A DNA stretch of 64,000 bases, from contig DATFFM010000073.1 in the NCBI GenBank assembly GCA_035250005.1, positions 3,215 to 67,214 on the forward strand, written 5' to 3'. The translations under genes were made by a program, and so were the position numbers. The DNA comes from Vicinamibacterales bacterium (GTDB taxonomy: Bacteria; Acidobacteriota; Vicinamibacteria; Vicinamibacterales; 2-12-FULL-66-21). Position 1 is the first letter of the stretch, and every line of letters begins with the position of its first letter. Below, in pieces: positions 4,240-58,675 of the stretch. The notes under the pieces are model-generated. The model saw nothing but the letters and a program-made list of their open reading frames with translations. It did not search any database and was not told the origin of the DNA.

Positions 4240-6663
4240 CTAGTCCGCCCGCAGGGCGACGATCGGATCCACGCGCGCGGCGCGCCTCGCCGGGACATAG
4301 GCGGCAGCAAGTGAGACGACCGCGAGCAGACCGGCGACCGCCACGAACGTCGCCGGGTCATGGGGGCTGGTGTCGAACAGCAGCTGCGCGACCAGCCACT
4401 CGGTCAGGAGAAACGCCGCGACGACGCCGATGAGCACGCCGCCGGAGGCCATGACCATCGCCTCGCGGACGATGAGGCCGAGCACGGCACGCTGTCGGGC
4501 CCCGAGCGCCATGCGAATACCGATCTCGCGTGTCCGCTGCGCCACCGCGTAGGAGAGCACGCCGAAGATCCCGATGGCGGCGAGCGTCAGCGCCACGCCG
4601 GCGAAAACCGCCAGCAGCGTCATGTAGAAGCGCGGCTGGGAAATCGAGCGCGCGACCAGCTCCTCGAGCGTGCGGACGTTGGCCACCGGCAGGTTGCCAT
4701 CCAGGGAATAGACCGCGCGGCGCGCCGGCTCGGCGACGCTGCCGGCCGGCACCGCGGTCTTCAGGACGAGACTCATGCCCTGAACCGGCCACTGGCGGTA
4801 CGCCAGATAGATCTGCGGGGGATCGGGCTCGTCGAGACCGGCATCCTTGATGTCACCGATGACGCCCACCACCTCTCCGCCGGCGCGGGGTCGGTTCGGC
4901 CCGCGTCCCCAGCCAAGCGTGATCTTCTTTCCGAGCGGGTCCTCATTGCGGAAGTACTGCTTCGCCGCCGCCTCCGTGATCAAGACGACCGGGGGTGTGT
5001 TGGAGCGGTCGTCCTCGGAAAAGAAGCGCCCCTTTCTCAGCGGAATACCGATGGTCTGAAAGTACTGCGGGGTTGCGACGCGCACCTGCATGGCGGGCTG
5101 CTGCGACGGCGGCACGGGCGGGCGTCCGGCCACTTCGAACGTCAGGACGATGCTGCTGCCGCTGAGCGGCAGCGACAGGACGGCCGCGGCGGCTTCGACG
5201 CCGGGGATGGCTTCGAGGCGCGGCAACAGGGCGTCAAAGAACGCCACCTGCTGGGCCTCCTCCGTGTAGCGGGCGTCCGGCAGTGACACCTCGAAGGTGA
5301 GTGCCTCCTGGACGCGAAAGCCGGGATCGACCGACGCCAGTCTGCTGAAACTGCGGATCAGCAGTCCGGCGCCTGCCAGCAGGGTCACCGCAAGCGCGAC
5401 CTCCGCAACCACCAGCGTCGTCCGCATGCGGGCGCCGCCGCGGGTGGTGAGCGCGCCGCGCGCGCCTTCCTTCAGCGTCGTTGAGATCCCGCTGCGCGTG
5501 GACTGGAATGCCGGAACCGCTCCGAACAGCAGACCGGTGATCAGCGCCAGGCCCATGGTGAAGCCGATCACCTCGACATCGACGCGCACTTCGCCAAGCC
5601 GCGGGACGCCCTGCGGCTCGAGCGCAATGAGCGCCTCGACGCCCCAGACCGCCAGCAGGAGGCCGAGCGCGCCCCCAACCAGGCTGAGGATCAGGCTTTC
5701 GGTCAGGAGTTGCCGGATCAGCCGCCAGCGGCCGGCGCCGAGGGCGGCGCGAACCGCGATCTCGCTCTCGCGGGAGGCCGCGCGCGCGAGCAGCAGATTC
5801 GCCACGTTCACGCAGGCGATCAGCAGCACGAACCCGACCGCGCCGAGCAGGATCCAGAAGGCGGTGCGCAGGTCGCCGACCATTGCTTCGTGGAGCGACA
5901 CCGCCGAGATGTCGACTCCCTCATTGCTGTCGGGATACTGTTTCGCCAGCTGTCGCCCGATCGTCTCGATCTCGGCGCGTACCTGCTCGACCGACACGCC
6001 CGGCCGGGTCCGGCCAACCGCCTGGAGGTACCAGGCGCCGCGCTGGGTCGTGGTCAGATTCTCCGAGTACTCCAGCGGCGTCCAGATCGCGCGCGCGGCG
6101 GGGAACGAGAACCTGTCCGGCATGACGCCAACGATTTCGTGCGCGACGCCGTCGAGGGTCAGGCGCTTGCCGACCGCCGCCGGATCGCCGCCGAACCGCT
6201 GCTGCCAGAGGGCGTAGCTGAGAATCGCGACGTGCGTCTTGCCCGGCTCGTTCTCGTCGGCACGAAAAGTCCGCCCGAGGTGCGCCGCCACGCCGAGCAG
6301 GTCGAAGAGGGAGGCACTGACCTCGGCGCCGTCCAGCCGGACAGGCTCCCCCCGGCCGGTCAGAATAGTGCGGCTCCGCGTGTAGGCTGCCGCGTCCCGG
6401 AGCGTGGTATTCAGCTTCCGGACGTCGGTGAAGTTCGGCCCCGACAACGGTGCGCGCCGCCCTTCGGAGAGATGGTAGAGGCCGACGATCTGGTGCGGAT
6501 CCTTATACGGCAGAGGCTGCAGCAGAACGGCATTGACGACGCTGAAGATCGCCGTGTTGGCCCCGATGCCGAGAGCCAGGGTGAGCAGGGCGACGACGGT
6601 GAAGGCCGGGCTCTTGATCAGCCGGCGGAAGGCATATCGAATATCGTGTCCGAGCGTGTCCAT
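4240..6663 (-). CDS. MacB/FtsX-type duplicated permease, ADOP-like (paralog 1, no prefix domain)
   Basis: Starts [41 protein letters not shown]. Two MacB-periplasmic plus FtsX modules, each with an RTREIG(I/V)R(M/A)ALGA loop. C-terminal [17 protein letters not shown]. Upstream part of ORF 4240..7002 rejected. Confidence 0.9.
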
Positions 6664-6832
6664 TGAATCCCCTGTCGCGGTGACGGCGAAGCCTGACCGG
6701 TGAGCCAACCGCGTGCCGACTGGCAGGAGCGGAGAAAAACCGCTATTTTCAGGTACTTTTCCATGGAAGATGACGCGTGGCTGGCGACCTGACGTCCGCG
6801 TCTGGTCACCGGCAATCCCGGAAACGAACAGC

Positions 6833-7399
6833 ATGACTTCACTGCCCGACGACCTGCAGAAACTGCTCGACGCCATGAACGCAGCCGATGACGCCGCCGA
6901 CGCGCTCGCGTCCCGGGTGACCGACGAGGAGTTCTTCTGGCGCCCCGACGAGAAGCGCTGGAGTATCGCGCTCTGCCTGGACCACCTCGCGGTCGCGAAC
7001 ACGGTCTACGGCCAGGCGATCCGCGAAGCGGTGGACCACGCGCGTGCGCGCGGCTGGACGCGCAGGGACCCGGCCGCGCCCGGTTTCTTCGGGCGGATGT
7101 TCGTGGCGTCGCTCGAGCCCCCGCCGAAGCGTCGGAGCTCGGCGCCGGGCAAGATCAAGCCGCGGCCGGTCACGAGCCGCGAAACGCTCCTGCGGGCGTA
7201 TCACCACGCACACGACGAGATCCGGCGGGTGATCAGGGATGCGGCGACGATCGACGTCAATCGCGCGACGTTCCGCAACCCGTTCATCGGGCTGGTCAGG
7301 GTCAGGGTGTCGACCGCATTCAACGTGATCGCCGCGCACGATCGGCGGCACCTGTGGCAGGCGGAGCAGGTGGAGAAGGCTCTGCGCTCGCGGGTGTAG
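6833..7399 (+). CDS. DinB-family (DinB_2-like) protein
   Basis: 188-aa protein with DinB-like helices and conserved His positions ([15 protein letters not shown] ... [16 protein letters not shown]). ATG 6833 chosen inside ORF 6713..7399. Confidence 0.75.
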
Positions 7400-7404
7400 C
7401 GTGC

Positions 7405-7433
7405 TTGCACTCCAGTAACGATTCGTGTTATAT
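7405..7433 (+). promoter_or_regulatory. candidate sigma70-type promoter with imperfect palindrome upstream of padR-1
   Basis: TTGCAC (7405-7410) - 17 nt - TTATAT (7428-7433). The spacer holds TAACGAtTCGTgTTA. GAGG lies 6 nt before ATG 7460. AT-rich patch in GC-rich DNA. Confidence 0.4.
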
Positions 7434-7459
7434 CCAACTTCGTCATAACGAGGTTCGAT

Positions 7460-7819
7460 ATGCCAAGAGACCTGGAGTCGGAGGTGCAGGCGCTATTGCC
7501 GCTGGCGCCGGCCTTTCTACATATCCTCATTGCCCTCGGCGAGGGGGAGCGGCACGGCTACAGCATCATGCAGGAGGTCGCCGACCGCACGTCAGGCCGC
7601 GTCCGGATGAGCCCCGGCACGCTCTACGGTTCGATCAAACGTATGCTCGCCGACGGCCTGATCGAGGAGCTGACCACCGGCACCGCCGGAGCCGACGAGC
7701 GACGCCGGTTCTACCGGCTCACCAAGTTCGGACGGCGGGTTGCGGCTGCCGAGGCCGACCGGCTCTCGTCTCTGCTGTTGCAGGCGCGGGCCTCCGGGCT
7801 CGTGCCGAAGCGGTCCTGA
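7460..7819 (+). CDS. PadR-family transcriptional regulator (module 1)
   Basis: 119 aa. Winged-helix PadR signature FLHILIALGEGERHGYSIMQEV...GTLYGSIKRMLADGLIEE...RRFYRLTKFG. Confidence 0.9.
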   Translation: MPRDLESEVQALLPLAPAFLHILIALGEGERHGYSIMQEVADRTSGRVRMSPGTLYGSIKRMLADGLIEELTTGTAGADERRRFYRLTKFGRRVAAAEADRLSSLLLQARASGLVPKRS

Positions 7820-7823
7820 AGCC

Positions 7824-10412
7824 ATGCCGCAGCCCCCCATCGTCGAGCGCCTCTACCGACTGCTGCTGCGCTGTTATCCCGGCGAGTTCCGCGACGACTA
7901 CGAGCGCGAGATGATGCGCGCCTTCAGGGAGCGCCTGGCGCACGATCGAGCGCTCGGCCCGGGCGCCGTGCTCCGCCTCGGTCTGCAGCTCCTGGTCGAC
8001 GCCGTCGTGCGCGCACCGCGGGAGCACCTCGACGTCCTTCGTCAGGACGGCAGGTACACCCTGCGCTCGCTCCGGAGTGCGCCGGTGTTCGCGATCACCG
8101 CGGTCGCGACCCTTGCGCTCGGTGTCGGGGCCAACACGGCCATCTTCTCTATCGTGCATGCCGTGGCGTTGAGACCGCTTCCGTACGAGGCCTCGGATCG
8201 CCTGGTGCGGATCTGGGAACGAAACGATTCACTGTCGATCCCCGATTTTGCGGTGTCGATGCCGAACTTCATCTCATGGCGCGAGCGCGCGACGACGGTC
8301 GACATCGTCGGCTGGCGCGGCGGGAGCGTGACGCTCCGCGGTCCTGGTGATCCGGTACGGGTTCAGTCGGTCAACGTGTCCCCCGATTTCTTCCGGTTGC
8401 TCGGGGTTACGCCGCTTGCCGGCCGCGTGCTGGTCGAGGCCGACACCGCTGCAAACGCCGGCAATCCGGCCCTGATCCGCGATTCGCTGTGGCGCGGTTA
8501 TTTCGGTGGGAGCCCGAACGTAGTCGGCAGCACGGTCACGATCGCCGGCCAGCCTTACACGATCGTCGGCGTCATTCCCGGGAGCAGCATCCCGCTCAGT
8601 GCGGAATTCTTCATGCCGCTGCGCTTCGATCCGACGACGGAAACGCGCGGCAACCGCATCGCCAACGTGATGGGCCGGCTGAAGCCCGGGTTCACGTTTG
8701 CTCAGGGGGAACAGGAGGTCCAGGCGATTGCCAGTCAACTGGAGTCGGAGTTCCCGGACTCCAACCGCAGATGGTCCATCACGATGACCTCGGTCTATGA
8801 CTGGCTGATCCCGGAAGAGACGCGGCGCGCGCTCTACGTTCTGCTCGGGGCCGTGGGCTGTGTGCTGCTCATCGCGTGCGCGAACGTGGCGAATCTGATG
8901 CTGGCGCGGACCGCCGCGCGCAGACGGGAGATGGCCGTCCGGCTGGCGATCGGTGCGGCGCGGCGCCGGCTCGTCAGGCAGGTCCTGACCGAATCGATGC
9001 TGCTGACCGCCCTCGGCGGAGCCGCCGGAATCCTGCTCGCGTACTGGGCCGTGCCGGTGATCCGGCAGTGGTTGCCGGAGACGCTCACCCGCGCCGATGA
9101 GGTGACAGTCAGCGCGCCGGTTCTCCTGTTTTCGTTCGGCGTCTGCATGCTGACCGGGCTCGCGTTTGCCGTGCTGCCGGCACTCGCGAGCTCCCGCGGG
9201 CATGTCACCGACTTCCTGAAAGAGGGCGGGCGCGGCAGCTCGGCGGCCGGCGCGACCCCCCGGCAGCTTCTCGCCGGGGCACAAGTCGCGCTCGCGACAC
9301 TCCTGCTGGTCGGCGCCGGCCTGTTCATCCAGAGCCTGCAACGACTGCAGCGCGTGGAGCTCGGCTTCGATCCACGCGGCATCACCACCGCGATGATGGG
9401 CGTACAAGGTGAACGGTTCGCGACGCAGGGCGGCCCCTGGAACCTCTTCTACCGGCCGCTGCTCGAACGTCTCGCCGCAGCGCCCGGCGTGGAGGGTGTG
9501 GCACTCTCCAGCGGCGCACCGTTTGGTGGAGGCAATACCGGCATGCCGATCAACGCCGTCGGCGACTCGCTGATGGGCGAGGCGGCGCTGCAGACCGACT
9601 GGCGGATGGTCAATCCGGACTACTTCAAGACCATGCGCATCCCCCTGCTGCGCGGCCGCTATTTCCGGCCCGGCGCCACCGACGAAAACGAGTTGATCGT
9701 CGCGGCGACGATGGCCAGGCGGATGTGGGGAGACGCCGATCCGATCGGCCGCCAGATCTCGGCGGGACCGAACGGCATCTGGACGGTGATCGGCGTCGTC
9801 GGCGACGTCCGGAACCTGGACCTCTCGCTCGCGCCGGCGCCGACGATGTACCTGTCGACGACCCGTTTCGTGTGGCCGACGATGACAGTCATCGTTCGCG
9901 CGGGCGAAGGGGCTCAGCCGGCAGCGCTGCTCCGCAACGCCGTTCGCGAACTGGATCCGCAGCTGGCGGTCTTCAACGTCCGTGAGATGGAGGCGCTGAT
10001 CGACGACAGCGCGGCCCAGCCACGGCTCAGTGCGTCGGTCGTGGGGCTGTTCGCCGGGATCGCCGCGGTGCTGGCCGCGATCGGCATCTACGGCGTGCTG
10101 GCGTATCTCGTGTCGCAGCGGACGCAGGAAATCGGCATCCGCATGGCGCTGGGCGCGAGCCGGCCCGCCGTGCTTCGACTTTTTCTCGGGCGCGGTCTGG
10201 TGCTCACGGCCGGCGGCCTGGTCGCAGGAGTCGCGGGGTCGCTCGCGATCTCGCGATGGGTGGGATCGCTGTTGTTCGACGTCCAGGCCAAAGATCCCTG
10301 GACCATTGCCATCGCCGGCAGTACGGTCGCGGCGGTGGCCCTGATCGCAGGCTACATTCCGGCCCGCCGCGCCACCAGGGTCGATCCGCTCACTGCGCTC
10401 CGGGCCGAGTAG
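7824..10412 (+). CDS. ADOP-like duplicated permease with N-terminal prefix domain (paralog 2)
   Basis: ATG 7824 lies 4 nt after the padR stop. About 70-aa extension MPQPPIVERLYRLLLRCYPGEFRDDYEREMMRAF... precedes [35 protein letters not shown]. Two FtsX modules. C-terminal PARRATRVDPLTALRAE. Confidence 0.9.
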   Translation: MPQPPIVERLYRLLLRCYPGEFRDDYEREMMRAFRERLAHDRALGPGAVLRLGLQLLVDAVVRAPREHLDVLRQDGRYTLRSLRSAPVFAITAVATLALGVGANTAIFSIVHAVALRPLPYEASDRLVRIWERNDSLSIPDFAVSMPNFISWRERATTVDIVGWRGGSVTLRGPGDPVRVQSVNVSPDFFRLLGVTPLAGRVLVEADTAANAGNPALIRDSLWRGYFGGSPNVVGSTVTIAGQPYTIVGVIPGSSIPLSAEFFMPLRFDPTTETRGNRIANVMGRLKPGFTFAQGEQEVQAIASQLESEFPDSNRRWSITMTSVYDWLIPEETRRALYVLLGAVGCVLLIACANVANLMLARTAARRREMAVRLAIGAARRRLVRQVLTESMLLTALGGAAGILLAYWAVPVIRQWLPETLTRADEVTVSAPVLLFSFGVCMLTGLAFAVLPALASSRGHVTDFLKEGGRGSSAAGATPRQLLAGAQVALATLLLVGAGLFIQSLQRLQRVELGFDPRGITTAMMGVQGERFATQGGPWNLFYRPLLERLAAAPGVEGVALSSGAPFGGGNTGMPINAVGDSLMGEAALQTDWRMVNPDYFKTMRIPLLRGRYFRPGATDENELIVAATMARRMWGDADPIGRQISAGPNGIWTVIGVVGDVRNLDLSLAPAPTMYLSTTRFVWPTMTVIVRAGEGAQPAALLRNAVRELDPQLAVFNVREMEALIDDSAAQPRLSASVVGLFAGIAAVLAAIGIYGVLAYLVSQRTQEIGIRMALGASRPAVLRLFLGRGLVLTAGGLVAGVAGSLAISRWVGSLLFDVQAKDPWTIAIAGSTVAAVALIAGYIPARRATRVDPLTALRAE

Positions 10413-10950
10413 TCACAAGGGGAGCCCTCCATCGAGGGTTCACCGCCGCATAGATGATCTGGTCCTTCGGCAGCCCGAACTTGACGCTGCTCGATCGGAG
10501 GACTCCTTCGCGCAGGTAACCGGCCTTCTCCAGTACTCGGATCGAACCGGGATTGTCGGCGAAGGGCAGCGCGAAGAGCCGAAGGAAGTTGAGCTCGGCA
10601 AAGGCATGCGCGGTCACCAGAACGAGCGCCTCCGAGACGATGCCGCGGCCCCAGAGGGTTTCGCCGAGCCAATAGCCGATCTCTGCCGAGTAGCGCTCGA
10701 CGTCGCGGCCAGCCACGTATCCGATCCCCCCCACCGCCGCGCCATTCACGTCGATCGCGAGGTTGCTCGGATCGGCCGACGCCGCCGCATGCTTCAGGAA
10801 CTCGCTGGCGTCCTTATGGGTATAGGGATGTGGAAACCGATCGCGAAGGCACTTCGCGACGTTGATGTTGTCGGCGTGCTCGACGAGCGAGGCCGCGTCT
10901 GACTTCAGCCACGGCCTGACGCAGCACCGCTCCCCTTCGAGTCTCAGCAC
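10390..10950 (-). CDS. GNAT-family N-acetyltransferase (RimJ/RimL-like)
   Basis: 186 aa. Motif IGYWLGETLWGRGIVSEALVLVTAHAF...NPGSIRVLEKAGYLREG. The 3' end overlaps the convergent permease by 23 nt. Confidence 0.85.
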   Translation of the reverse strand: MLRLEGERCCVRPWLKSDAASLVEHADNINVAKCLRDRFPHPYTHKDASEFLKHAAASADPSNLAIDVNGAAVGGIGYVAGRDVERYSAEIGYWLGETLWGRGIVSEALVLVTAHAFAELNFLRLFALPFADNPGSIRVLEKAGYLREGVLRSSSVKFGLPKDQIIYAAVNPRWRAPLVTTRPGAQ

Positions 10951-10957
10951 GCGTCCC

Positions 10958-11662
10958 CTAGAACAGCGCGCGGCCGGAGTGGCGCAGCCATCGTTCGGCC
11001 TCGCGGTACGCCGGGCACGCCCGTTCGACCAGGGCCCAGAACCGCACCCCGTGGTTCTGCTGTCTGAGGTGCATCAGTTCGTGGATCAGCACGTAATCGC
11101 AGATGGCTGGCGGCATCTGGACGAGCCGGAAATTGAGCGCGACCGCCCCGGACCGGGAGCACGACCCCCAGCGTGACCGCTGGTTCCGGATCGTCACCTT
11201 CTGAACCTGGAGGCCATGCTGAGTGGCAAGCTCCCGCAGCCGCGGAATCAGGCACTCGGCCGCAACCGCGCAGAGATCCCGTTCGATGTCCGGCCTGACA
11301 TCGGCGGCGTGCTTCACCCGTACTCGGCGATCCGCATAGCACGCGATCGGGCCGTTGCCGGTCTCTTCGACTGTGATGATGTGCGGCTCGCCGAACAGGC
11401 TGACGACACTGCCCTGCGTCCAGCACACGGGCGCCCGCTCCCGGCGGACTCGGGCGCGCTCGCGCGCAATCCAGGCGAGGTGCCGGCCGATGAAGACGAT
11501 CGCCTGGACACGCGAACCGCCGCGCGGAATCGTGACCCGCAGCGTGCCGTCAGGCCGGACGCGAAGGATGTATCGGCGAGCCTTCCGGACGCGGACGAAC
11601 TCCACCCCGTCGGCAGAAGGCGGAGGCGGCTCTGATCTCAGGAATGGCAGATCGAGTTGCAC
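10958..11662 (-). CDS. YgjP-like (DUF45/M48-related) zinc metallopeptidase
   Basis: 234 aa. Contains QKVTIRNQRSRWGSCSRSGAVALNFRLVQMPPAICDYVLIHELMHLRQQNHGVRFW, with an HExxH motif. Confidence 0.85.
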   Translation of the reverse strand: MQLDLPFLRSEPPPPSADGVEFVRVRKARRYILRVRPDGTLRVTIPRGGSRVQAIVFIGRHLAWIARERARVRRERAPVCWTQGSVVSLFGEPHIITVEETGNGPIACYADRRVRVKHAADVRPDIERDLCAVAAECLIPRLRELATQHGLQVQKVTIRNQRSRWGSCSRSGAVALNFRLVQMPPAICDYVLIHELMHLRQQNHGVRFWALVERACPAYREAERWLRHSGRALF

Positions 11663-11689
11663 GAGCTGCCGAAATCATAACAGCAAGTC

Positions 11690-14110
11690 TCAGTCGTTCC
11701 TCAACGCCACGATCGGGTCGACCGCCATCGCACGGCGGGCCGGAAGGTAGCTGGCGAGCGCCGCGATGATCGTCAGGAACAGAGCCACACCGCCGAAGCT
11801 CACCGGATCGGTCGGCGTGACGTTATAGAGGATCGACTGGATGATCCACGTGACCGCGGCCGCACCGACGAGGCCGCCGGCGATCCCCCACGCCGCGAGA
11901 CGCAATCCCTGCCCGACGATGAGCCGAAGGACGTCATGGCGCCCGGCGCCGAGCGCCAGCCGCACGCCGATCTCCTGGACGCGCTGCGACACCGAATACG
12001 ACAGCACACCGTAGACGCCGATCGATGCCAGCACGAGCGCGATGAAACCAAACGTCGCGAACATCGATCCAAACAGCCCGTACTGCCAGTAACTGAGGCG
12101 CCGCAGCTCTTCGACCGTCGTGACCGCGAACATCGGCAAGGTCGGATCCGAGAGGCGCAGCTGCTCGCGAACCGCCGACGTGATCTGCGCCGGGTCGCCC
12201 GCCACGCGGATCGTCAGCCCGGTGTTCAGCGTCGTCTCAAATGGATACGGCACGTAGGCGGCCGGCTCCTGCGGCTCCGTGTCACCGCCTTGCCGGTGCC
12301 GGAAATCGGCAACGATACCGATGACGGTGAACCAGTCCTGCGTGGAGCCATCCACCAGATGGAACCGGCGGCCGACCGGATCGGACCCGGGCCAGAGGCG
12401 CTGGGCCATCGCCTGATTGACCAGCGCCACGGGCGTACGGGTGGCCCCCTCTGCATTGGACATGTCCCGGCCGGCGACCAGCGCCACGTCGAGCGTCTGG
12501 CGCATGTGGGGGGTCACGCCGATCAGCTCGATTCCGGGTTCCCGGCCGGGTTCGACGGCGTTCCCCTCGACGATCACCCGCCCGCCACCGCCGCCGGCGC
12601 CCATCGGCACGAAGTTGGAGGCAAAGGCGGCCTGCACGCCGGGCAGCGACTCCACCCGGCGGACGATATCTTCCACTCGCCGCGCCTTGGCTTCGGCCGG
12701 TTCGTAGGCCGCGCCCGGCAGGTAGAACCGCATCGACATCAGCGGGCCGGTGTCGAAACCAACGGCCGCCCCCTGAAGGTTGAGAAAGCTGCGCACGAAC
12801 AGCGACGCGCCCACCAGCAGCACGAGCGACAAGGCGACCTCGCTGATGACGAGCGTGTTGCGCAGGCGCGCCCTGGAACCGCCGGCATGACCCCGGCCAC
12901 CGTCCTTCAGGCTGCTCTGCAGGTTCGTGCGCAGAGCCTGCATCGCCGGCGCGAGGCCGAAGACCAGTCCGGTGAGCAGCGAGATCGCGGTCGTGTACGC
13001 CAGCGACCGGGCGTTGAGGCTCCAGCTGATGAAGTACGGCACCTGGTCGGGAGGCATCGCCCCGTCGACCAGCCGGACACCGATCCACGCAATGGCCGCA
13101 CCGAGCGGCCCGCTGATGCACCCGATCATCACGGCCTCGGTCAGGAGCTGCCGGACGATCCGCCACCGGCCGGCGCCGAGCGCCAGCCGGATCGAGATCT
13201 CACGCTGCCGCACCGAGGCCCGTGCGAGAAGCAGGTTCGCGACGTTCGCGCATGCGATCAGGAGCACCAGCGTCACGGCGCCCATCATCGTCAGGAGCAC
13301 GAGCTCGACCTGTTGGGGCAGCATCCATTCGCCGAGCGTGCGCGTCGTGACGCTCCAGCCGGCGTTCTCGCGCGGATACGCGGTCGCCAGACGGGCCGCA
13401 ATGCCCGAGAGCTCGCTCTCGGCCTGCTGCTGCGAGACGCCCGGCTTGAGCCGCGCGAAGACGGAATGGATGGCTCCACGGGCGTCGCGCGGGGTGGCGT
13501 CCTGGTAGGGCGCGATCGTCACCCACAGCCGCTCGTTCTCGGGGAAGAGAAAACGTTCGGGCATTACGCCGATGATCGTGTGGGGTTTGCCGTTGACCAT
13601 GATGGCGCGGCCGACGATCGCCGCGTCCTTCTGGTAGCGCAGTTCCCAGAGCTCGTGGCTGAGGAGCACGACCGGTTCGGCCCCCGGCTTGTCGTCATCC
13701 GGCATGAAATCGCGTCCAGCGACCGGACGCATGCCGAGCAGGCCGAACAGATTCCAGCTGACCGTGGCGCCCGAAAAGCGTTCCGGCTCGCCTCTGCCGT
13801 CCGAGATCGTGAGGCTGCGGTTGGCAAACGCGGCGATCGATGCGATGGTCGAGGAGGAGTCGCGGATGTCCTTGAAGTCGGCGTACGAGAGCGTCCCCCT
13901 GGAAATGCGCTGCTCGTGATTGCGCGCATGCACCACGATGATGCGTTCCGGTTCCGGATATGGATACGGGCGCAGGATGACGCCGTCGATCACGCTGAAG
14001 ATCGTGGCATTGACGCCGATGCCCAGGGCCAGGCAGGCCACCGCAACCGCAGTGAAACCCGGACTTTTGACGAGTGAACGGAAGGCGTACCGAACGTCCT
14101 GCCTCAGCAT
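11690..14110 (-). CDS. ADOP-like duplicated permease (paralog 3, no prefix)
   Basis: 806 aa. Starts MLRQDVRYAFRSLVKSPGFTAVAVACLALGIGVNATIFS. Two FtsX modules (QREISIRLALGA, VQEIGVRLALGA). C-terminal [17 protein letters not shown]. Confidence 0.9.
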   Translation of the reverse strand: MLRQDVRYAFRSLVKSPGFTAVAVACLALGIGVNATIFSVIDGVILRPYPYPEPERIIVVHARNHEQRISRGTLSYADFKDIRDSSSTIASIAAFANRSLTISDGRGEPERFSGATVSWNLFGLLGMRPVAGRDFMPDDDKPGAEPVVLLSHELWELRYQKDAAIVGRAIMVNGKPHTIIGVMPERFLFPENERLWVTIAPYQDATPRDARGAIHSVFARLKPGVSQQQAESELSGIAARLATAYPRENAGWSVTTRTLGEWMLPQQVELVLLTMMGAVTLVLLIACANVANLLLARASVRQREISIRLALGAGRWRIVRQLLTEAVMIGCISGPLGAAIAWIGVRLVDGAMPPDQVPYFISWSLNARSLAYTTAISLLTGLVFGLAPAMQALRTNLQSSLKDGGRGHAGGSRARLRNTLVISEVALSLVLLVGASLFVRSFLNLQGAAVGFDTGPLMSMRFYLPGAAYEPAEAKARRVEDIVRRVESLPGVQAAFASNFVPMGAGGGGGRVIVEGNAVEPGREPGIELIGVTPHMRQTLDVALVAGRDMSNAEGATRTPVALVNQAMAQRLWPGSDPVGRRFHLVDGSTQDWFTVIGIVADFRHRQGGDTEPQEPAAYVPYPFETTLNTGLTIRVAGDPAQITSAVREQLRLSDPTLPMFAVTTVEELRRLSYWQYGLFGSMFATFGFIALVLASIGVYGVLSYSVSQRVQEIGVRLALGAGRHDVLRLIVGQGLRLAAWGIAGGLVGAAAVTWIIQSILYNVTPTDPVSFGGVALFLTIIAALASYLPARRAMAVDPIVALRND

Positions 14111-15317: not shown

Positions 15318-15425
15318 GACCGAGAGTATAGTCGGCTCGACCTCAGACGGCTCGGGTTCGGCATTTAACGTCCAGCATTCGGCGTTTTCACGGAACTTCC
15401 AATCGCCTCCGGTGTCCAGTACGCC

Positions 15426-16190
15426 ATGCTCGAAGCCAGGCATCTCGGGAAGTTCTATTCAGGCATCCCGGCCGTGAAGGACGTCAACTTCACGCTGCGC
15501 GCCGGGGACGTTCTCGGCCTGCTCGGGCCGAACGGCTCAGGCAAGTCGACGACGGTGTCGATGCTCACCGGGTTGCTGGAGCCAACCACGGGACAGGTGC
15601 TGTTGAATGGGGACAGCATCCGGCAGGCGCCGCTCGAATACAAGGCGAAGATCGGCTACGTCCCCGAAGAAGCCCACCTTTATACCTACCTGACCGGCCC
15701 CGAGTACCTGGAGCTCGTCGGGCAGCTGCGTGGTCTTGCGCCGCGGGTGCTGGCCGAAAAGATCCAGGCCTTCATGCACATCTTCGGCCTCGAAGAAGAC
15801 CGCTACGCGCAGATGTCGGCGTACTCGAAAGGGATGCGGCAGAAGATCCTCATCGCGGCGGCGCTGCTGCACGATCCCGAGATCATCATTCTGGACGAGC
15901 CGAACTCCGGCCTCGATGTCACTTCGACATTGATTCTGCGCAGCCTGGTGCAGGAGCTCTCGGCCGCGGGCAAGCTGATCGTCTACAGCTCCCACGTGCT
16001 CGAGATCGTCGAACGAGTCGCCACCGACGTGCTGATCCTCCATGAGTCGAAAGTCGTCGCGCACGACTCGGTCTCGCGGCTTCGCGACCTGATGGCGCTG
16101 CCGTCGCTCGAGCAGGTGTTTCGAAAGGTCGTGATCGCCGAGGATGTCGATCAGATCGCGCGCGACGTCGTCGGGGTGATGAAGCTGTGA
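15426..16190 (+). CDS. ABC transporter ATP-binding protein (ABC-2 type)
   Basis: Walker A GPNGSGKST, signature YSKGMRQK, Walker B IIILDEP, H-loop SSHVLE. 254 aa. Confidence 0.9.
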   Translation: MLEARHLGKFYSGIPAVKDVNFTLRAGDVLGLLGPNGSGKSTTVSMLTGLLEPTTGQVLLNGDSIRQAPLEYKAKIGYVPEEAHLYTYLTGPEYLELVGQLRGLAPRVLAEKIQAFMHIFGLEEDRYAQMSAYSKGMRQKILIAAALLHDPEIIILDEPNSGLDVTSTLILRSLVQELSAAGKLIVYSSHVLEIVERVATDVLILHESKVVAHDSVSRLRDLMALPSLEQVFRKVVIAEDVDQIARDVVGVMKL

Positions 16191-17896
16191 CGCCCGAAGC
16201 GCAACAGACCCGGCTGCTGGCGCGGACGTTCTTTTCGCGCCTGTTCGAGACCGACCTCATGACCAGCAGCCACGGTCAGGTGCAGCTCGTCATCTCGGTC
16301 ATCGTGTTCCTCGCCGCCCCGGCATTGATCCTGCCCATCCTCGTCTCGAAGAAGTACTTCCGAATCAGGGATCCCGACCTGCTGCTCGCCGCGATGGCGC
16401 AGGACCGGACGATGGCGCTGCTGCTGGCGACGGTCGCGACCGCCATGATCACGCTGGTGCTCTGGGAGAACGTCTTTCCGGACCAGCGCGACAGCCGCCA
16501 CCTGGGCGTGCTCCCGATCAGGCAGCGGTCGTTCGTCCTGGCGAGGATGATCGCGATGGTTGCACTTTTCGTCATGTTGTTCCTCGGCACGACGGCGCTG
16601 GCCGCGGTCACGTTCGGCCTGACCGGTAGCATGTTCCACGCGTCAGGCGGCTTCTTTCGGATCGCGTTCGCCCACTTCATCGCGGTGGCCGGCGCGGAAG
16701 CGTTCGTCTTCTTCAGCCTGGTCATGCTGCAGTGCGCCCTGATGAGCATCGCGGGACCCGGCCTCGCCCATCGATTCGCCGTCGTCCTGCAGGTCGTGTT
16801 CGTCGTCACGGTGCTGCAGACCCCATTGCTGCTGCCCGGGCGTGAGGCTTTCCTCGCCGGCGGCGGCGGTGCGCCGCCGTGGTCGCAGGCGGCAACCGTC
16901 TGGGCACTGCCGCCCATGTGGTTTCTGGCCTTGTTCGAGTTCCTCGCACGGGGCGGTTATCCAGGAACCCGTGGGCTCGCGACGCTTGCGGCGATCGCCG
17001 GAGGCGGCACTCCGATCCTGGCGCTGGCGTTCTACGCCGCAAGCTACGGCCGCTTGACACGGCTGGCGATAGAAGGACGGCCGCTCCCGAAGGGACGCTC
17101 GACGCCCCTCCTGGCACGGGGCGTCTCGGCGGCGGTACGCGCGACCACGTCCGTGCCGGTTACGGCTGCCGTCTGCGCCTTTACGCTTCGAACGCTGGCA
17201 CGCAGCCGCCAGCATCGCATGCTCCTCGCCGGATGGATCGGCGTGGCGACGGCGTTCATCATTTCGTCGATCCTGCCGGTGGCCGTCCGGGTCGGGTGGA
17301 GTGCGTTCGAAAGACCTCACGCCGCCGTACTCGTCGGCCCGCTCATCCTTTCCGCACTGACGATCACCGGGATGCGGATGTTGTTCGCGCTCCCGGTCGA
17401 GATCCGTGCGAACTGGACGTTCCGGCTCCGGGAACCGGTAACGGTGTCGGAGGCCGTGAACGGGGCCGAGGCGGCGCTGGTCATCTGCGGCGTCCTGCCC
17501 GCGGTCGTATTGGCGCTCGTCTCTGCCGGATGGCTCTGGGGCATCACGGCCGGGCTGATGCACGCCGTGTTCTGCGGCGTGATGGCGATGACCGCCGTTC
17601 AGTTCCTGATGCGCGGCGTCGACAAGATCCCGTTCACGTGTACGTATTTTCCAGGCAAGGCACAGATCGGCAAGTTCTGGCCCCTCTATCTCACCGCCTT
17701 CACGACATTCACCTATTCGGCGGCCTTCTCCGAAGTGGCGTTGCTCGAGTCTCCCGTCGGGTACGGCGCCGCTGTCGTGGTTCTCGGACTGACGGGGGGC
17801 GCGCTCGCCTGGAGCCGGCGGCGCGATACGGCGCTGCTGCCCAACCTGCGATTCGAGGAAGAGCCCATGGACGGCTTGACGGTCATGTCCTTCTGA
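16187..17896 (+). CDS. large polytopic membrane protein, putative permease partner of the ABC ATPase
   Basis: 569-aa ORF whose start overlaps the ATPase stop (ATGA at 16187-16190). At least 10 hydrophobic segments. No conserved motif recognised by eye. Confidence 0.65.
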   Translation: MTPEAQQTRLLARTFFSRLFETDLMTSSHGQVQLVISVIVFLAAPALILPILVSKKYFRIRDPDLLLAAMAQDRTMALLLATVATAMITLVLWENVFPDQRDSRHLGVLPIRQRSFVLARMIAMVALFVMLFLGTTALAAVTFGLTGSMFHASGGFFRIAFAHFIAVAGAEAFVFFSLVMLQCALMSIAGPGLAHRFAVVLQVVFVVTVLQTPLLLPGREAFLAGGGGAPPWSQAATVWALPPMWFLALFEFLARGGYPGTRGLATLAAIAGGGTPILALAFYAASYGRLTRLAIEGRPLPKGRSTPLLARGVSAAVRATTSVPVTAAVCAFTLRTLARSRQHRMLLAGWIGVATAFIISSILPVAVRVGWSAFERPHAAVLVGPLILSALTITGMRMLFALPVEIRANWTFRLREPVTVSEAVNGAEAALVICGVLPAVVLALVSAGWLWGITAGLMHAVFCGVMAMTAVQFLMRGVDKIPFTCTYFPGKAQIGKFWPLYLTAFTTFTYSAAFSEVALLESPVGYGAAVVVLGLTGGALAWSRRRDTALLPNLRFEEEPMDGLTVMSF

Positions 17897-17904
17897 CGTT
17901 GGTC

Positions 17905-17945
17905 AACTCCCAAACTCCAAACTCCAAACTCCAAACTCCAAATGC
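17905..17945. repeat. heptamer tandem array (AAACTCC)n, same family and orientation as the left arm of 14158-14243
   Basis: aactccc aaactcc aaactcc aaactcc aaactcc aaatgcc, directly after the stop of the 569-aa membrane protein. Confidence 0.85.
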
Positions 17946-17983
17946 CCAGCTTCAAACGGCCAGGTTGAGACGAAAGCTGCGTG

Positions 17984-18013
17984 TTGACGCTAGTATCACT
18001 TTGATACTAGTAT
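17984..18013 (+). promoter_or_regulatory. candidate promoter plus perfect 9-3-9 palindromic operator upstream of padR-2
   Basis: TTGACG (17984-17989) - 18 nt - TAGTAT (18008-18013). CTAGTATCA-ctt-TGATACTAG (17990-18010) spans the spacer and the -10. Only 6 nt separate the -10 from ATG 18020, so the mRNA is probably leaderless. Confidence 0.5.
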
Positions 18014-18019
18014 CCCCGC

Positions 18020-18385
18020 ATGGCCAAGGCTTCCCCCCGGTACAATACCGAACAGCATCTCCCACTGAAACCGCTGGTCTTCCAGGTACTCCTTGCGCTG
18101 GCCGAGGGTGAGCGCCATGGGTGGAGTCTCGTGCGCGACGTCCAGCAGCGCGGCGGCTTCGGCCGGCTGATGCCGGGCAATTTCTACCGCACGCTGCGGT
18201 CCATGCTCGCGGACGGCTTCATCGAAGAGTGCCCGTCACGCCCGGCGGCGACCGACGACGACGAGCGCCGACGCTACTTCCGGCTGACGGCACTCGGTGA
18301 ACAGGTCGCGATCGCGGAAGCGAAGCGCCTGGAGGCTGCCGTGCTCGAGGCGCGCGCCCGAAAACTCCTGACGCGGCGGGGATGA
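18020..18385 (+). CDS. PadR-family transcriptional regulator (module 2)
   Basis: 121 aa. [23 protein letters not shown]...[18 protein letters not shown]...[10 protein letters not shown]. Confidence 0.9.
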
Positions 18386-21051
18386 TGACAGCGCTCGAAC
18401 GGCTGCTGTACCGGATCCTGCTGCTCGCGTTTCCGCGACGCATTCGCCGGGACTTCGGCGCCGACATGGCTGTGATGTTCGAGAAGCAACTGATCGAGAC
18501 CCGACCGGCGGGAGCGGGGCGTGCGCGCATCTGGGCGGCCGCCATCGTTGACGCGCTCGCCAATGGCGCCGCCGAACGCAGCCGGCCGCTGCAGGCGGCG
18601 GCGCTGGCTCTGCCCCGGGAAACCAGGCGATGGAGGTGGTGGATGTACGCAATTCGTCAGGACGTTCAGTACGCGATTCGGCTTCTCGCCAAGCAGCCGG
18701 GGATCACCATCATCGCGGTGCTGACCCTCGCGCTGGGGATCGGCGCCAACACCGCCATCTTCTCCGCCGTCAACGCTGTTCTGCTGCGGCCGTTGCCCTA
18801 CCCGGAGCCCGATCGCGTGATGATGCTGTGGGAGAAGCGGCCGGCCGAAGGGGTGTTCGACAACGTCGTGTCGCCGGCCGACTTCCTCGACTGGGCGCAG
18901 ATGCAGGGGGCCTTCGAGTCCCTCGCGGCGATCGTTCCGGTCGCAACCGACCTGACGGGCACGGGGGATCCGGTCCGCGTGTTCACCGGTGCGGTCTCGC
19001 CGTCGTTCTTCGATGTTTTCGGCACCCGGCCCATGCTCGGCCGGACGTTCAGGGAAGACGAAACGGTCCCGGGCAAACACCGGGTCCTGATCGTCGGGCA
19101 TCGCCTGTGGCAGGAGCGCTTCGGCTCCGATCGCGCGATCGTGGGCAGGACGATCGCGCTCAGCGGCGTGCCTCACGAGGTGGTCGGGGTGCTGCCGCCC
19201 ACGTTCGAGTTCCCCGACGACGAACTGGAGCTGTGGGTGCCGCTGACGTTTGCCGCCGGGGCCCAGCCGTCCCGCACGAGCCATTACCTCAACGTCTACG
19301 GACGGCTGAAGCCGGGCGTGACGCTCGAACAGGCCCGGATCGAGATGGATCGCATCGGCACGCAGCTGCAGCAGCAGTACCCGGATGCGAACCGGGCCCA
19401 CGGCGCGCATGTCACCTCGATGGCGGCGCAATTGAAGACGCCGGTCCGGTCTCCGCTCCTGCTTCTTCTCACCGCCGTCGGGCTGGTGCTCCTGATCGCG
19501 TGCGTCAATGTGGCGAACCTGCTGCTCGCGAAAGCGGCAGCGAGACGCCGCGAGATGGCGGTGCGTGCCGCCGTCGGCGCGGCGCGCGGCCGGCTTGCGG
19601 GTCAGATGATCACCGAGTCGGTCGTGCTCGCCCTGGTCGGCGGTACCGCCGGCCTGCTCGTGGCGTGGTGGGCGATCGGCGCACTCCGTCAGCTCGCGCC
19701 GGCCGGCATGCCGATCCTCGGTCTCGACCACTTTGCCCTCGAACCGCGAGTGCTCGCATTCACCTTCGTGGTCTCGCTGCTGACTGGGCTGGTATTCGGC
19801 GTGCTTCCGGCGTGGCATCTGGCGAGTCAGGACGTCAGCCAGACGCTCAGAGACGCAGGACGCAGCGCCGGCAGCGTGCGGCGGGGCCTCCGGGTGGCGC
19901 TGGTGGTCTCAGAGATCGCCCTGGCGTCACTGCTGCTGGTCGCCGCGGGGCTGACGGTTCGCAGCTTCCAGTCGCTGCTCGATACCGATGCAGGATTCCG
20001 GAGCGACGGCGTGCTCACGTTCAACATCACCTTGCCACAGTCGCGTTACGCGACCACCGAGGCACAACTCGCGGCCTTCGAGCGCGTCGGAGAACAGCTG
20101 AAAGTGCTTCCGGGTGTCGTCGTAGTGGGCGCGACCAGTTTCCTCCCACTCTCGGGGGCCGACGCGCGCCGCGGCGTGGGCATCGAAGGCCGGGAGCCGA
20201 CCCCTGATACGCCAACGCGCGCCCATCCCCGGCCGGTGACGCCCGACTACTTCCGTGCAATCGGGATCACCGTCAAGGAAGGACGAGGTTTCACGAAGAG
20301 CGACGACGCGAACGCTCCGCTGGTCGTGGTCGTCAACGAAACCATGGCACGCCGCTACTGGCCCGGCGTCTCACCGGTCGGAAAGCGCCTGACACTCGCA
20401 GGCGGCGACGTCTGGCGCGAAGTCGTCGGTGTCATCGCCGATGTCCGGCACTGGGGCCTCGATCAGGTCGTCAATCCCGAGATGTACTTTCCCCACGTGC
20501 AGCTGCCCTTCTCGTCGACCATGACCTTCGTCGTGCAGACCAGGACCGACCCCGCGTCGCTGGCAGCCGCAGCCCGGGAGCAGGTCAGGCTCATCGACCC
20601 GAATCTGCCGCTGTCGAAGGTACGAGGCATGAACGAGGTCGCCGCGCTGTCGATGGCGTCGCGGCGAGGCGGCATGCTCCTGCTGTCGGTTTTCGGCCTG
20701 CTGGCGCTGACCCTTGCGGCCGCGGGGATCTATGGAGTGATGTCCCACCTCGTCGCGCTCCGGCGCGCCGAGATCGGCATCCGCATGACGCTCGGCGCCC
20801 GGCCGTCCACAGTGATGAGTCTGGTGCTCAAGGAAGGCTTGCTTCAGACAGCCGCCGGTCTGACGATCGGCGTGGTGGGCGGGGTCCTGGCGATGAGAAC
20901 GTTCCGGGCGATGCTGTTCGAGGTGGAACCGGCGGACCCGCTCACGCTCGGAACCGTGACGATCCTTCTGCTTGCAACCGCCGCACTCGCCTGCATCGTA
21001 CCGGCACGGCGTGCCATGCGCGTGGATCCGGTAGAGGCGCTGCGCAGCTAG
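18382..21051 (+). CDS. ADOP-like duplicated permease with N-terminal prefix domain (paralog 4)
   Basis: ATG overlaps the padR stop (ATGA 18382-18385). About 90-aa extension [33 protein letters not shown]... comes before [39 protein letters not shown]-terminal [16 protein letters not shown]. Confidence 0.9.
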
Positions 21052-58529: not shown

Positions 58530-58577
58530 GTGTGCCCTCCTGCTCCTGTTGATCTTCAACAGAAGCCTGCCGTCGCT

Positions 58578-58596
58578 CATGTTGGACGTCAACATG
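58578..58596. promoter_or_regulatory. 7-5-7 inverted repeat, candidate PadR operator in divergent intergenic region
   Basis: CATGTTG-gacgt-CAACATG contains ATGT-N9-ACAT, close to the ATGT-N8-ACAT type reported for PadR operators. It lies between padR-3 (start 58529, minus strand) and permease paralog 7 (start 58676, plus strand). Confidence 0.5.
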
Positions 58597-58675
58597 AGCG
58601 GAAAGGTTGCGGGCACCCCGCACGATTTCTTTGTTCCGACGAACGCGGAGTGGCCGAAACACGTCAAACTGGCCT

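Follow-up and report, generated by a model that had tools for sequence, protein, structure and literature searches.

A two-gene unit was investigated in a 64-kb stretch of DNA (the whole of which is referred to below as the window) from a Vicinamibacterales bacterium of the Acidobacteriota (GenBank assembly GCA_035250005.1, contig DATFFM010000073.1, positions 3215–67 214). The unit, module 1, consists of padR-1, which encodes a short PadR-family regulator, and the gene of an ADOP permease that carries an additional N-terminal domain, here called the type-A prefix. We consider it probable (about 0.6) that module 1 is a self-regulated two-gene signalling cassette that follows the design of the HAAS-PadR dyad on an ADOP permease, with the prefix as the partner of PadR-1. 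Among the loci compared, repressor clade and prefix type travel together and the membrane body is exchangeable. New here is a very large prefix family for which there is no model and which has its own PadR clade and candidate operator.

Organization of module 1

The features of module 1, all on the forward strand, are as follows.

7405–7410, forward: candidate −35 hexamer TTGCAC, three of six positions as in TTGACA
7428–7433, forward: candidate −10 hexamer TTATAT, overlapping the left half of the candidate operator
7429–7447, forward: candidate PadR operator TATATCCAACTTCGTCATA, an imperfect palindrome of the TATATCC-N5-GGATATA class
7460–7819, forward: padR-1, an open reading frame (ORF) starting with ATG, 119 amino acids (aa), short single-domain PadR-family winged-helix regulator
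7820–7823, forward: gap AGCC, the 4 nucleotides (nt) between the TGA stop of padR-1 and the permease ATG
7824–10412, forward: permease ORF of module 1, 862 aa
7824–8036, forward: type-A prefix domain, residues 1–71, three predicted helices, probably on the cytoplasmic side
8037–10412, forward: ADOP core, residues 72–862, two repeats, each with four FtsX-type transmembrane (TM) helices and one MacB-like periplasmic domain

In the original prediction, made from the sequence alone, 4 nt separated the end of padR-1 from the start codon of an 862-aa duplicated permease, and this was confirmed (TGA, AGCC, ATG 7824). The two genes form one tightly packed operon. In orthologous loci the two genes are 1 nt apart (L081) or overlap by 4 nt (L089), and the permease start at ATG 7824 is backed by the orthologues P0014 and P0005, which have the same beginning. 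PadR-1 scored 60.3 bits against the Pfam PadR family (PF03551, gathering cut-off 27) and is thus a member of that family, and it remained below the cut-off of the acidobacterial PadR model TIGR03433 (54.1 bits, cut-off 101.8). The permease matched the ADOP model TIGR03434 with 876.4 bits (cut-off 622.3) over residues 72–862 and model positions 1–803; residues 1–71 are considered extra because the match begins at residue 72. Two MacB_PCD (PF12704) and two FtsX (PF02687) domains were found in the one polypeptide.

It had also been predicted that no ATPase accompanies the pair, which holds for module 1: none of the ORFs in the operon has a Walker A motif or an ABC signature, and the nearest ABC_tran gene (15369–16187), the only ABC ATPase in the window, lies 5 kb away with a membrane partner of its own. 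The 'orphan' status of the permease may hold for its gene neighbourhood only, its basis being the 64-kb window.

Association of the prefix with padR

Eighty loci from 80 species (Acidobacteriota, Gemmatimonadota, Verrucomicrobiota and others) were collected with an ADOP alignment and the window was added. A six-frame search of these 80 loci and the window with our own ADOP, PadR and prefix hidden Markov models (HMMs) identified 204 ADOP genes with an intact N-terminus, and the 188 with at least 800 nt of upstream DNA were used in a contingency table. The N-terminal extensions of ADOPs belonged to four sequence families, designated A–D.

Prefix and directly upstream padR occurred together in 30 of the 188 ADOPs, a prefix without padR in 11, padR without a prefix in one, and neither in 146 (odds ratio ~398, Fisher p = 1.7e-24). 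The prefix is therefore far from equally common in ADOPs without padR, and the link between the two is considered real. As 146 of the 147 prefix-less ADOPs had no padR, PadR appears tied to the prefix and not to the ADOP as such. The sole gene with padR and no prefix, in locus L029, has only a 32-codon open frame in the prefix position, possibly a frameshifted prefix. Of the 11 prefix-bearing genes without padR, four follow a padR-linked permease as second or third member of a tandem array, six are in L067 and one is in L070. In 27 of the 31 linked pairs the ADOP start codon lay between −8 and +31 nt from the padR stop.

The association was also found for type A in metagenomes. A scan with an 11-sequence subset of the type-A alignment returned 80 loci, 77 of which had enough upstream DNA; padR was directly upstream in 75 of the 77, ending about −17 to +52 nt from the prefix start, with one at +233. 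Four of the 34 complete ORFs in the metagenome loci encode small proteins without an ADOP domain. The type-A prefix stood beside padR in all four genome loci that carry it, and padR was directly upstream in seven of eight further context look-ups for type-A proteins (proteins of 193, 251, 378 and 399 aa, two further ADOPs and the P0005 fragment in L081), L088 being the exception. Together with the odds ratio, these counts bear out the earlier proposal that repressor, prefix and permease form a real, non-random module.

The window contains seven ADOP genes, all above the TIGR03434 cut-off. Three of these (starts at 7824, 18382 and, on the minus strand, 58191; modules 1, 2 and 3) are preceded by padR, and each of them bears a prefix. 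The four paralogues without padR open with the D(I/V/L)R(Y/F)A motif, as had been noticed from the sequence, and the permease of module 1 has 71 residues more. The recurrence of the prefix motif in module 2 was likewise confirmed: ERLYR..LL..(Y/F)P..(F/I)R.D(Y/F) is present in modules 1 and 2, and one HMM built from both matches both.

In several loci a single padR heads an array of two or three type-B ADOPs (L047, 10012–17800; L035, 3360–8500; L042, minus strand, 8434–13500), and one repressor may serve several prefix-bearing permeases in such arrays.

Three apparent PadR-prefix fusion proteins (P0011, P0103 and P0130) were considered as Rosetta-stone evidence and rejected, being read as frameshifted read-through of adjacent genes in metagenome assemblies.

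The type-A prefix family

Type A comprises the prefixes of modules 1 and 2, L001 and L070. Type B corresponds to NF038403 (perm_prefix_1) and was the commonest, with 28 cases, of which module 3 is typical; type D corresponds to NF038404 (perm_prefix_2), with L073 above the cut-off (41 bits) and L044 just under it. Type C matched no model in a scan of NCBIfam. Comparison of types A–D by hhalign gave alignments in a sensible register with P values of only 0.016 to 0.2, by which homology is not established.

A search of the prefix against Pfam and NCBIfam, including the permease prefix models, had been proposed with the original prediction. When it was run, type A matched no model: residues 1–79 of module 1 gave nothing meaningful at E values up to 10 and no match to NF038403 or NF038404 even at E = 10, and the 38 type-A members hit no recurrent Pfam family. 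Sequence searches of the PDB with type-A and type-B profiles gave chance matches only (ribosomal protein L3, designed helical repeats). Among 1.84 billion representative proteins, the type-A profile matched at least 4,616 clusters with a threshold of E ≤ 1e-3, of which 189 remained at E ≤ 1e-10. A family of at least 4,600 clusters is thus without a Pfam or NCBIfam model, so that genome annotation misses it.

The match began at the N-terminus in almost every listed protein. Besides ADOPs of 860–900 aa, the carriers included membrane proteins of about 140–205, 250 and 370–400 aa, in which the prefix is followed by several hydrophobic helices and no Pfam domain. Small and medium-sized carriers include P0059, P0105, P0123, P0081 and P0085 and those in L090, L097, L100 and L154; their genes likewise follow padR, often with a 4-nt overlap. 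An alignment of 38 sequences revealed conserved positions P19, R23, L14, L15, M30, F34, W53 and D59. An A-P-x-E-H motif at residues 64–68 was frequent in type A, was not invariant and was absent in module 2.

The PadR proteins were found to vary with the prefix. In 36 of 36 cases a PadR and its nearest relative stood with one and the same type of prefix, division into four groups by average linkage gave pure A, B, C and D groups, and identity was 45–51 % within a prefix type compared with 19–27 % between types. The type-A PadR clade, which includes PadR-1, occurred only with type-A prefixes and also contained PadRs whose downstream protein is not an ADOP. The ADOP cores showed no such pattern: the nearest core relative of a prefix-bearing ADOP was mostly prefix-less or had another prefix type. 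Because PadR clades follow the prefix type and ADOP bodies do not, PadR and prefix behave as a unit joined to various membrane bodies. This co-variation provides the strongest indirect argument that the two may act together.

Promoter and candidate operator

The original prediction named a TTGCAC-N17-TTATAT promoter upstream of padR-1. These hexamers are present at 7405–7433, matching the sigma-70 consensus at six of 12 positions, and a sigma-70 scan reported no promoter in 6600–10800, so that the promoter call comes from cross-locus comparison only. In the orthologous locus L081 a perfect TTGACA lies one base upstream of the site aligned with TTGCAC, and TTGACA-spacer-TATAAT was found in the equivalent position in many related loci.

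A palindrome in the promoter spacer, TAACGATTCGTGTTA, had also been named. It is present, and as evidence for an operator it is weaker than a different palindrome, at 7429–7447, which reads TATATCC-N5-CGTCATA and overlaps the −10 hexamer. The latter is the only site in the window that matches TATATCC-N5-GGATATA with at most three mismatches (0.13 expected by chance). An inverted-repeat finder with a seed of 6 reported none in 7380–7470, and the site emerged from cross-locus comparison. The conserved block TATATCCAA.T..GT.ATAACG was found in L081 and the same block in L070, L090 and L121, and a perfect TATATCC-N5-GGATATA palindrome, or one a base shorter at one end, in L001, L084 and L150.

Exact TATCC-N5-GGATA occurred four times in 89 loci, each time immediately upstream of a type-A module, one of these being L088. 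This strict form was not universal among type-A loci and only the looser TATC-N7-G.TA class was enriched: it, or its mirror, was found in 25 of 73 upstream regions of type-A padR genes compared with none of 260 control windows. In many type-A upstream regions the palindrome fills the spacer and −10 region of a TTGACA...TATAAT promoter. Because the palindrome is conserved across loci and enriched upstream of type-A padR genes, 7429–7447 is preferred as the operator, and it is likely, judging from these comparisons, to be the PadR-1 operator overlapping the −10 hexamer.

In L088, two tandem TATCC-N5-GGATA-like palindromes (2230–2510) lie in a 270-nt gap upstream of a type-A ADOP that has no padR, which suggests putative control in trans by a PadR encoded elsewhere.

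Predicted structure of the prefix and permease

An AlphaFold model of the prefix alone, based on 38 sequences, contained helices at residues 6–15, 20–44 and 48–84 (mean predicted local distance difference test score, pLDDT, 69), and Foldseek found no match to it in the PDB better than E = 9. The full-length model (mean pLDDT 85, predicted template-modelling score 0.77) had the same three prefix helices, so that the three-helix core was obtained in two independent runs. In this model, helix 3 (residues 46–85) is one residue from TM helix 1 (87–116).

The best Foldseek match of the permease was YbbP of the Escherichia coli YbbAP complex (PDB 9ge6, E = 1.6e-20), followed by MacB, LolCDE, YtrEF, HrtBA and BceAB. 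On the evidence of the model, the permease is predicted to be a YbbP/MacB-type fused double FtsX protein. As the N-terminus of MacB-type permeases is cytoplasmic, as established from MacB structures, the prefix is probably cytoplasmic as well. Helices in the TM2/TM3 loop (residues 367–375) and the TM6/TM7 loop (767–775) carry residues that were invariant in 21 aligned ADOPs (R366, E369, R373, A375 and G377, and R766, E769, R773 and G777). We take this motif to be the helix of MacB-type permeases that couples to the nucleotide-binding domain; it was conserved alike in prefix-bearing and prefix-less paralogues.

Comparison with known systems

The HAAS-PadR dyad was defined by comparative genomics by Ravi, Aravind and co-workers (mSystems 2024; PMC11237479). 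HAAS is a three-helix domain overlapping DUF1700, DUF1129 and DUF1048, is always found beside a standalone PadR-like gene and is usually N-terminal on multi-TM proteins; fusions to FtsX-like TM domains with MacB/PCD are listed explicitly (PMC11237479). In this purely computational proposal, which offers an alternative to two-component signalling, the fused membrane domains are sensors and HAAS relays a conformational signal to PadR (PMC11237479). Module 1 resembles the dyad in having a short standalone PadR gene directly upstream of a membrane protein and a small N-terminal three-helix domain, probably cytoplasmic in module 1, that is portable among multi-TM bodies; a kinase-free alternative to two-component signalling is likewise proposed. 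It differs in the third helix, which in HAAS is kinked where a conserved GxP motif lies: the 38-sequence type-A alignment has no conserved GxP, and helix 3 was modelled unkinked.

The NCBIfam models TIGR03433, TIGR03434, NF038403 and NF038404 describe the same gene order and the same permease family, although in module 1 only the ADOP model passes its cut-off. The original prediction regarded the pairing as undescribed. Full-text literature searches indeed found no experimental work on PadR-ADOP pairs, and no function was assigned to ADOPs in the literature found by them; as to novelty in general, these NCBIfam models and PMC11237479 already cover such pairings, and the pairing is of a kind described computationally and known to database curators.

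Experimental parallels come from Listeria, whose short PadR repressors regulate their own expression and that of membrane proteins (PMC6624303). LftR shares a transcript with LftS, a DUF1048 protein (PMC4517056), and induction of LftR targets by aurantimycin requires LftS (bioRxiv 10.1101/2023.07.27.550809). PadR regulators of transporters are exemplified by LadR/mdrL and LftR/lieAB (PMC6624303, PMC4517056). LftR/LftS, LstR/Lmo0421 and LltR share with module 1 an autorepressing short PadR whose gene is transcribed together with that of a partner (soluble LftS, of the DUF1048 family, or membrane proteins), the need for the partner LftS in induction by an envelope-active antibiotic, and a partly palindromic, AT-rich operator (GTAWTAC-N3-ATAC), the autorepression and the roles of the partner and of the operator being proposed for module 1. 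They differ in belonging to Firmicutes and in having as partner a separate soluble protein or a RodA/FtsW-like fusion and not an ADOP. No sequence similarity was detected between the type-A prefix and the Listeria partners.

The E. coli YbbAP complex (PDB 9ge6, 9ge7) and MacB-type (type VII) ABC transporters have in common with the permease the fused double FtsX fold, MacB-like periplasmic domains and the presumed coupling-helix motif, and differ from it in that the ADOP has no accompanying ATPase gene. To our knowledge, and with no search made here, neither YbbP nor MacB has an N-terminal prefix or a PadR partner.

A likeness to BlaI/BlaR and to Bce-type flux sensing had been drawn in the original prediction and is reasonable as an analogy. 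In BlaI/BlaR1 and BceAB-BceRS, as proposed here, an envelope signal reaches a DNA-binding protein of the cytoplasm through a membrane protein, and in BceAB-BceRS the FtsX-type permease is itself the sensor. Module 1 differs in having no protease domain, histidine kinase or response regulator, and its PadR is not of the BlaI type.

Proposed mechanism and alternative explanations

In the proposed cassette, a PadR-1 dimer would bind the palindrome at 7429–7447 and repress its own operon. The cytoplasmic prefix, mechanically continuous with TM helix 1, would be the partner of PadR-1. Binding or handling of a substrate by the periplasmic and TM parts of the permease, or their sensing of damage to the envelope, would set off a movement that reaches the prefix via TM helix 1 and helix 3. 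The prefix would then capture or reconfigure PadR-1, relieving repression and raising the production of both permease and repressor; once the signal is gone, the extra PadR would shut the operon down again. Such logic would be akin to that of a sigma/anti-sigma pair or of Bce-type flux sensing, with neither kinase nor protease. An envelope-sensing or regulatory role, as originally suggested, is the best reading available.

Several observations weigh against this cassette. The right half of the operator in the window is degenerate, with four of seven positions retained, and confidence in the prefix model is only moderate (pLDDT 67–84). In L088 (CP063845.1, a complete genome) a type-A ADOP has no adjacent padR, though operators are present, and L067 (1–21701) contains at least seven tandem ADOPs, each with a type-C prefix and with no padR between or in front of them. 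The co-variation of PadR and prefix could stem from co-inheritance of neighbouring genes with no physical contact between the products. The conserved coupling-helix motif also makes it possible that the permease is an active pump served by an ATPase encoded elsewhere. As regards the likeness to HAAS, the Pfam HAAS model (PF22564) matched none of the 38 type-A members at E ≤ 10 (and three of 24 type-B members, weakly, with a best E of 0.001), and hhalign of type A against type B gave P = 0.016 and a probability of 3 %, so that homology to HAAS is not demonstrable. In context, module 1 does agree with HAAS-PadR dyads, in that it has a PadR neighbour, the N-terminal position, varied membrane bodies and three helices; with this agreement and the failure of the sequence tests, module 1 is likened to the dyad and its prefix is not filed as HAAS.

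L067 is the clearest exception to the prefix-padR rule. Its type-C prefix carries ..IVPRRLRADWRQEWEAELRHRE.., and upstream of the array there is a gene pair on the minus strand that is toxin-antitoxin-like by eye only.

The exceptions in L067 are among the points that would fit an ordinary ligand-sensing PadR-1 (LmrR/PadR-like, responding to drugs or phenolics) that controls an efflux-type permease, the prefix having a role internal to the transporter (gating, oligomerization or ATPase docking) and never touching PadR. Direct sensing of small molecules and control of transporters are common among PadR regulators; conservation of the presumed ATPase-coupling motifs suggests a working ABC-type machine, and YbbP, the closest structure, works with the ATPase YbbA. 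A transporter-internal role nevertheless leaves unexplained why the type-A prefix is also found, behind padR, on unrelated small membrane proteins without FtsX, and both the tracking of prefix type rather than permease body by the PadR clades and the lack of padR beside almost all prefix-less ADOPs speak against it. We regard this explanation, the main rival, as rather unlikely. The prefix-bearing ADOP might instead be mainly a receptor and not a transporter, the MacB-type periplasmic domains sensing and the relay ending in PadR, with the prefix-less ADOPs doing something else. The lack of an ATPase in or near the operon agrees with this, as do the sensor role given to fused membrane domains in the HAAS-PadR proposal and the presence of BceAB-type permeases, a known precedent for sensing, among the structural matches. 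The sequences, on the other hand, show no loss of transporter features, the presumed coupling helices being the same in paralogues with and without a prefix. This explanation, which partly overlaps the cassette proposed above and differs from it only on whether transport persists, we hold to be improbable.

That the extension is an annotation artefact, a chance open frame in DNA of 67 % GC with the true start at the ADOP core, is scarcely credible. High-GC DNA does yield long spurious frames, and in the prefix-less ADOP at 4240–6663 the frame stays open for 113 codons ahead of the real start. The 71 residues are, however, conserved at the protein level in thousands of clusters, start consistently beside the padR stop and fold as helices in the models, and prefix-less paralogues mostly have an in-frame stop less than 30 codons upstream.

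A wider idea, which we hold to be rather unlikely, is that the type-A prefix might be an independent invention and not a diverged HAAS. With its own PadR clade and a TATATC-type operator it would then define a separate, widespread family of kinase-free transmembrane cassettes attachable to various bodies, and ADOPs would run MacB-type mechanotransmission in reverse, from a periplasmic event to a repressor. If this is true, a sensory role would fall to the greatly expanded 'orphan' ADOPs of soil Acidobacteria. Few gene families have expanded as much as the ADOP permeases in soil Acidobacteria, Gemmatimonadota and relatives, with seven in the 64-kb window and at least seven in a row in some loci. 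PadR-plus-prefix cassettes may be a class of signalling systems with neither kinases nor proteases, so far a computational proposal, for which module 1 offers a compact, testable example, the repressor having 119 aa, the candidate operator 19 bp and the candidate partner domain 71 residues.

Other ADOP modules and neighbouring genes in the window

The remaining ADOP modules and genes of the window are as follows.

18020–18385, forward: padR-2 of module 2, overlapping the permease gene by ATGA
18382–21051, forward: permease of module 2
58580–58188, minus: padR-3 of module 3, overlapping the permease gene by ATGA
58191–55531, minus: permease of module 3
4240–6663, minus: ADOP without prefix or padR, opening with the D(I/V/L)R(Y/F)A motif ahead of TM1
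11690–14110, minus: ADOP without prefix or padR, same start
25010–27502, minus: ADOP without prefix or padR, same start
58676–61141, forward: ADOP without prefix or padR, same start

PadR-2 scored 32.7 bits against TIGR03433, under the cut-off of 101.8. A perfect palindrome, CTAGTATCA-N3-TGATACTAG, lies at 17990–18010, 10 nt ahead of the padR-2 ATG, and is a likely operator of module 2; its half-site spacing is TATC-N5-GATA, unlike that of module 1. A run of CCAAACT heptamer repeats (17905–17958) was found upstream of padR-2. Module 3 was above the cut-offs for TIGR03433 (PadR-3, 150.6 bits), TIGR03434 and NF038403 perm_prefix_1 (39 bits). It is divergent from the prefix-less ADOP at 58676–61141, and the start of padR-3 coincides with a perfect 11-nt inverted repeat, CGCTCATGTTG-N5-CAACATGAGCG (58574–58600), which contains ATGT-N9-ACAT.

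Neither an Rfam nor a tRNA scan of the window gave a hit. The ABC ATPase gene (ABC_tran, 107 bits) directly precedes that of a 569-aa multi-TM protein (15369–17896, forward, with coordinate 16187 common to both ORFs); this partner had no Pfam or NCBIfam match, and the pair is located just upstream of module 2. Upstream of module 1 is a gene for a DinB_2 protein (6713–7399, forward), a neighbour kept in L081, where synteny with module 1 comprises an ADOP on the opposite strand, DinB_2, PadR and the prefix-ADOP. On the other side, a GNAT acetyltransferase gene (10390–10950, minus), kept as a neighbour in L089, converges on the permease gene, with 23 nt of overlap at the 3′ end of the latter; a gene for a YgjP-like metallopeptidase (10958–11662, minus) also lies beside module 1.

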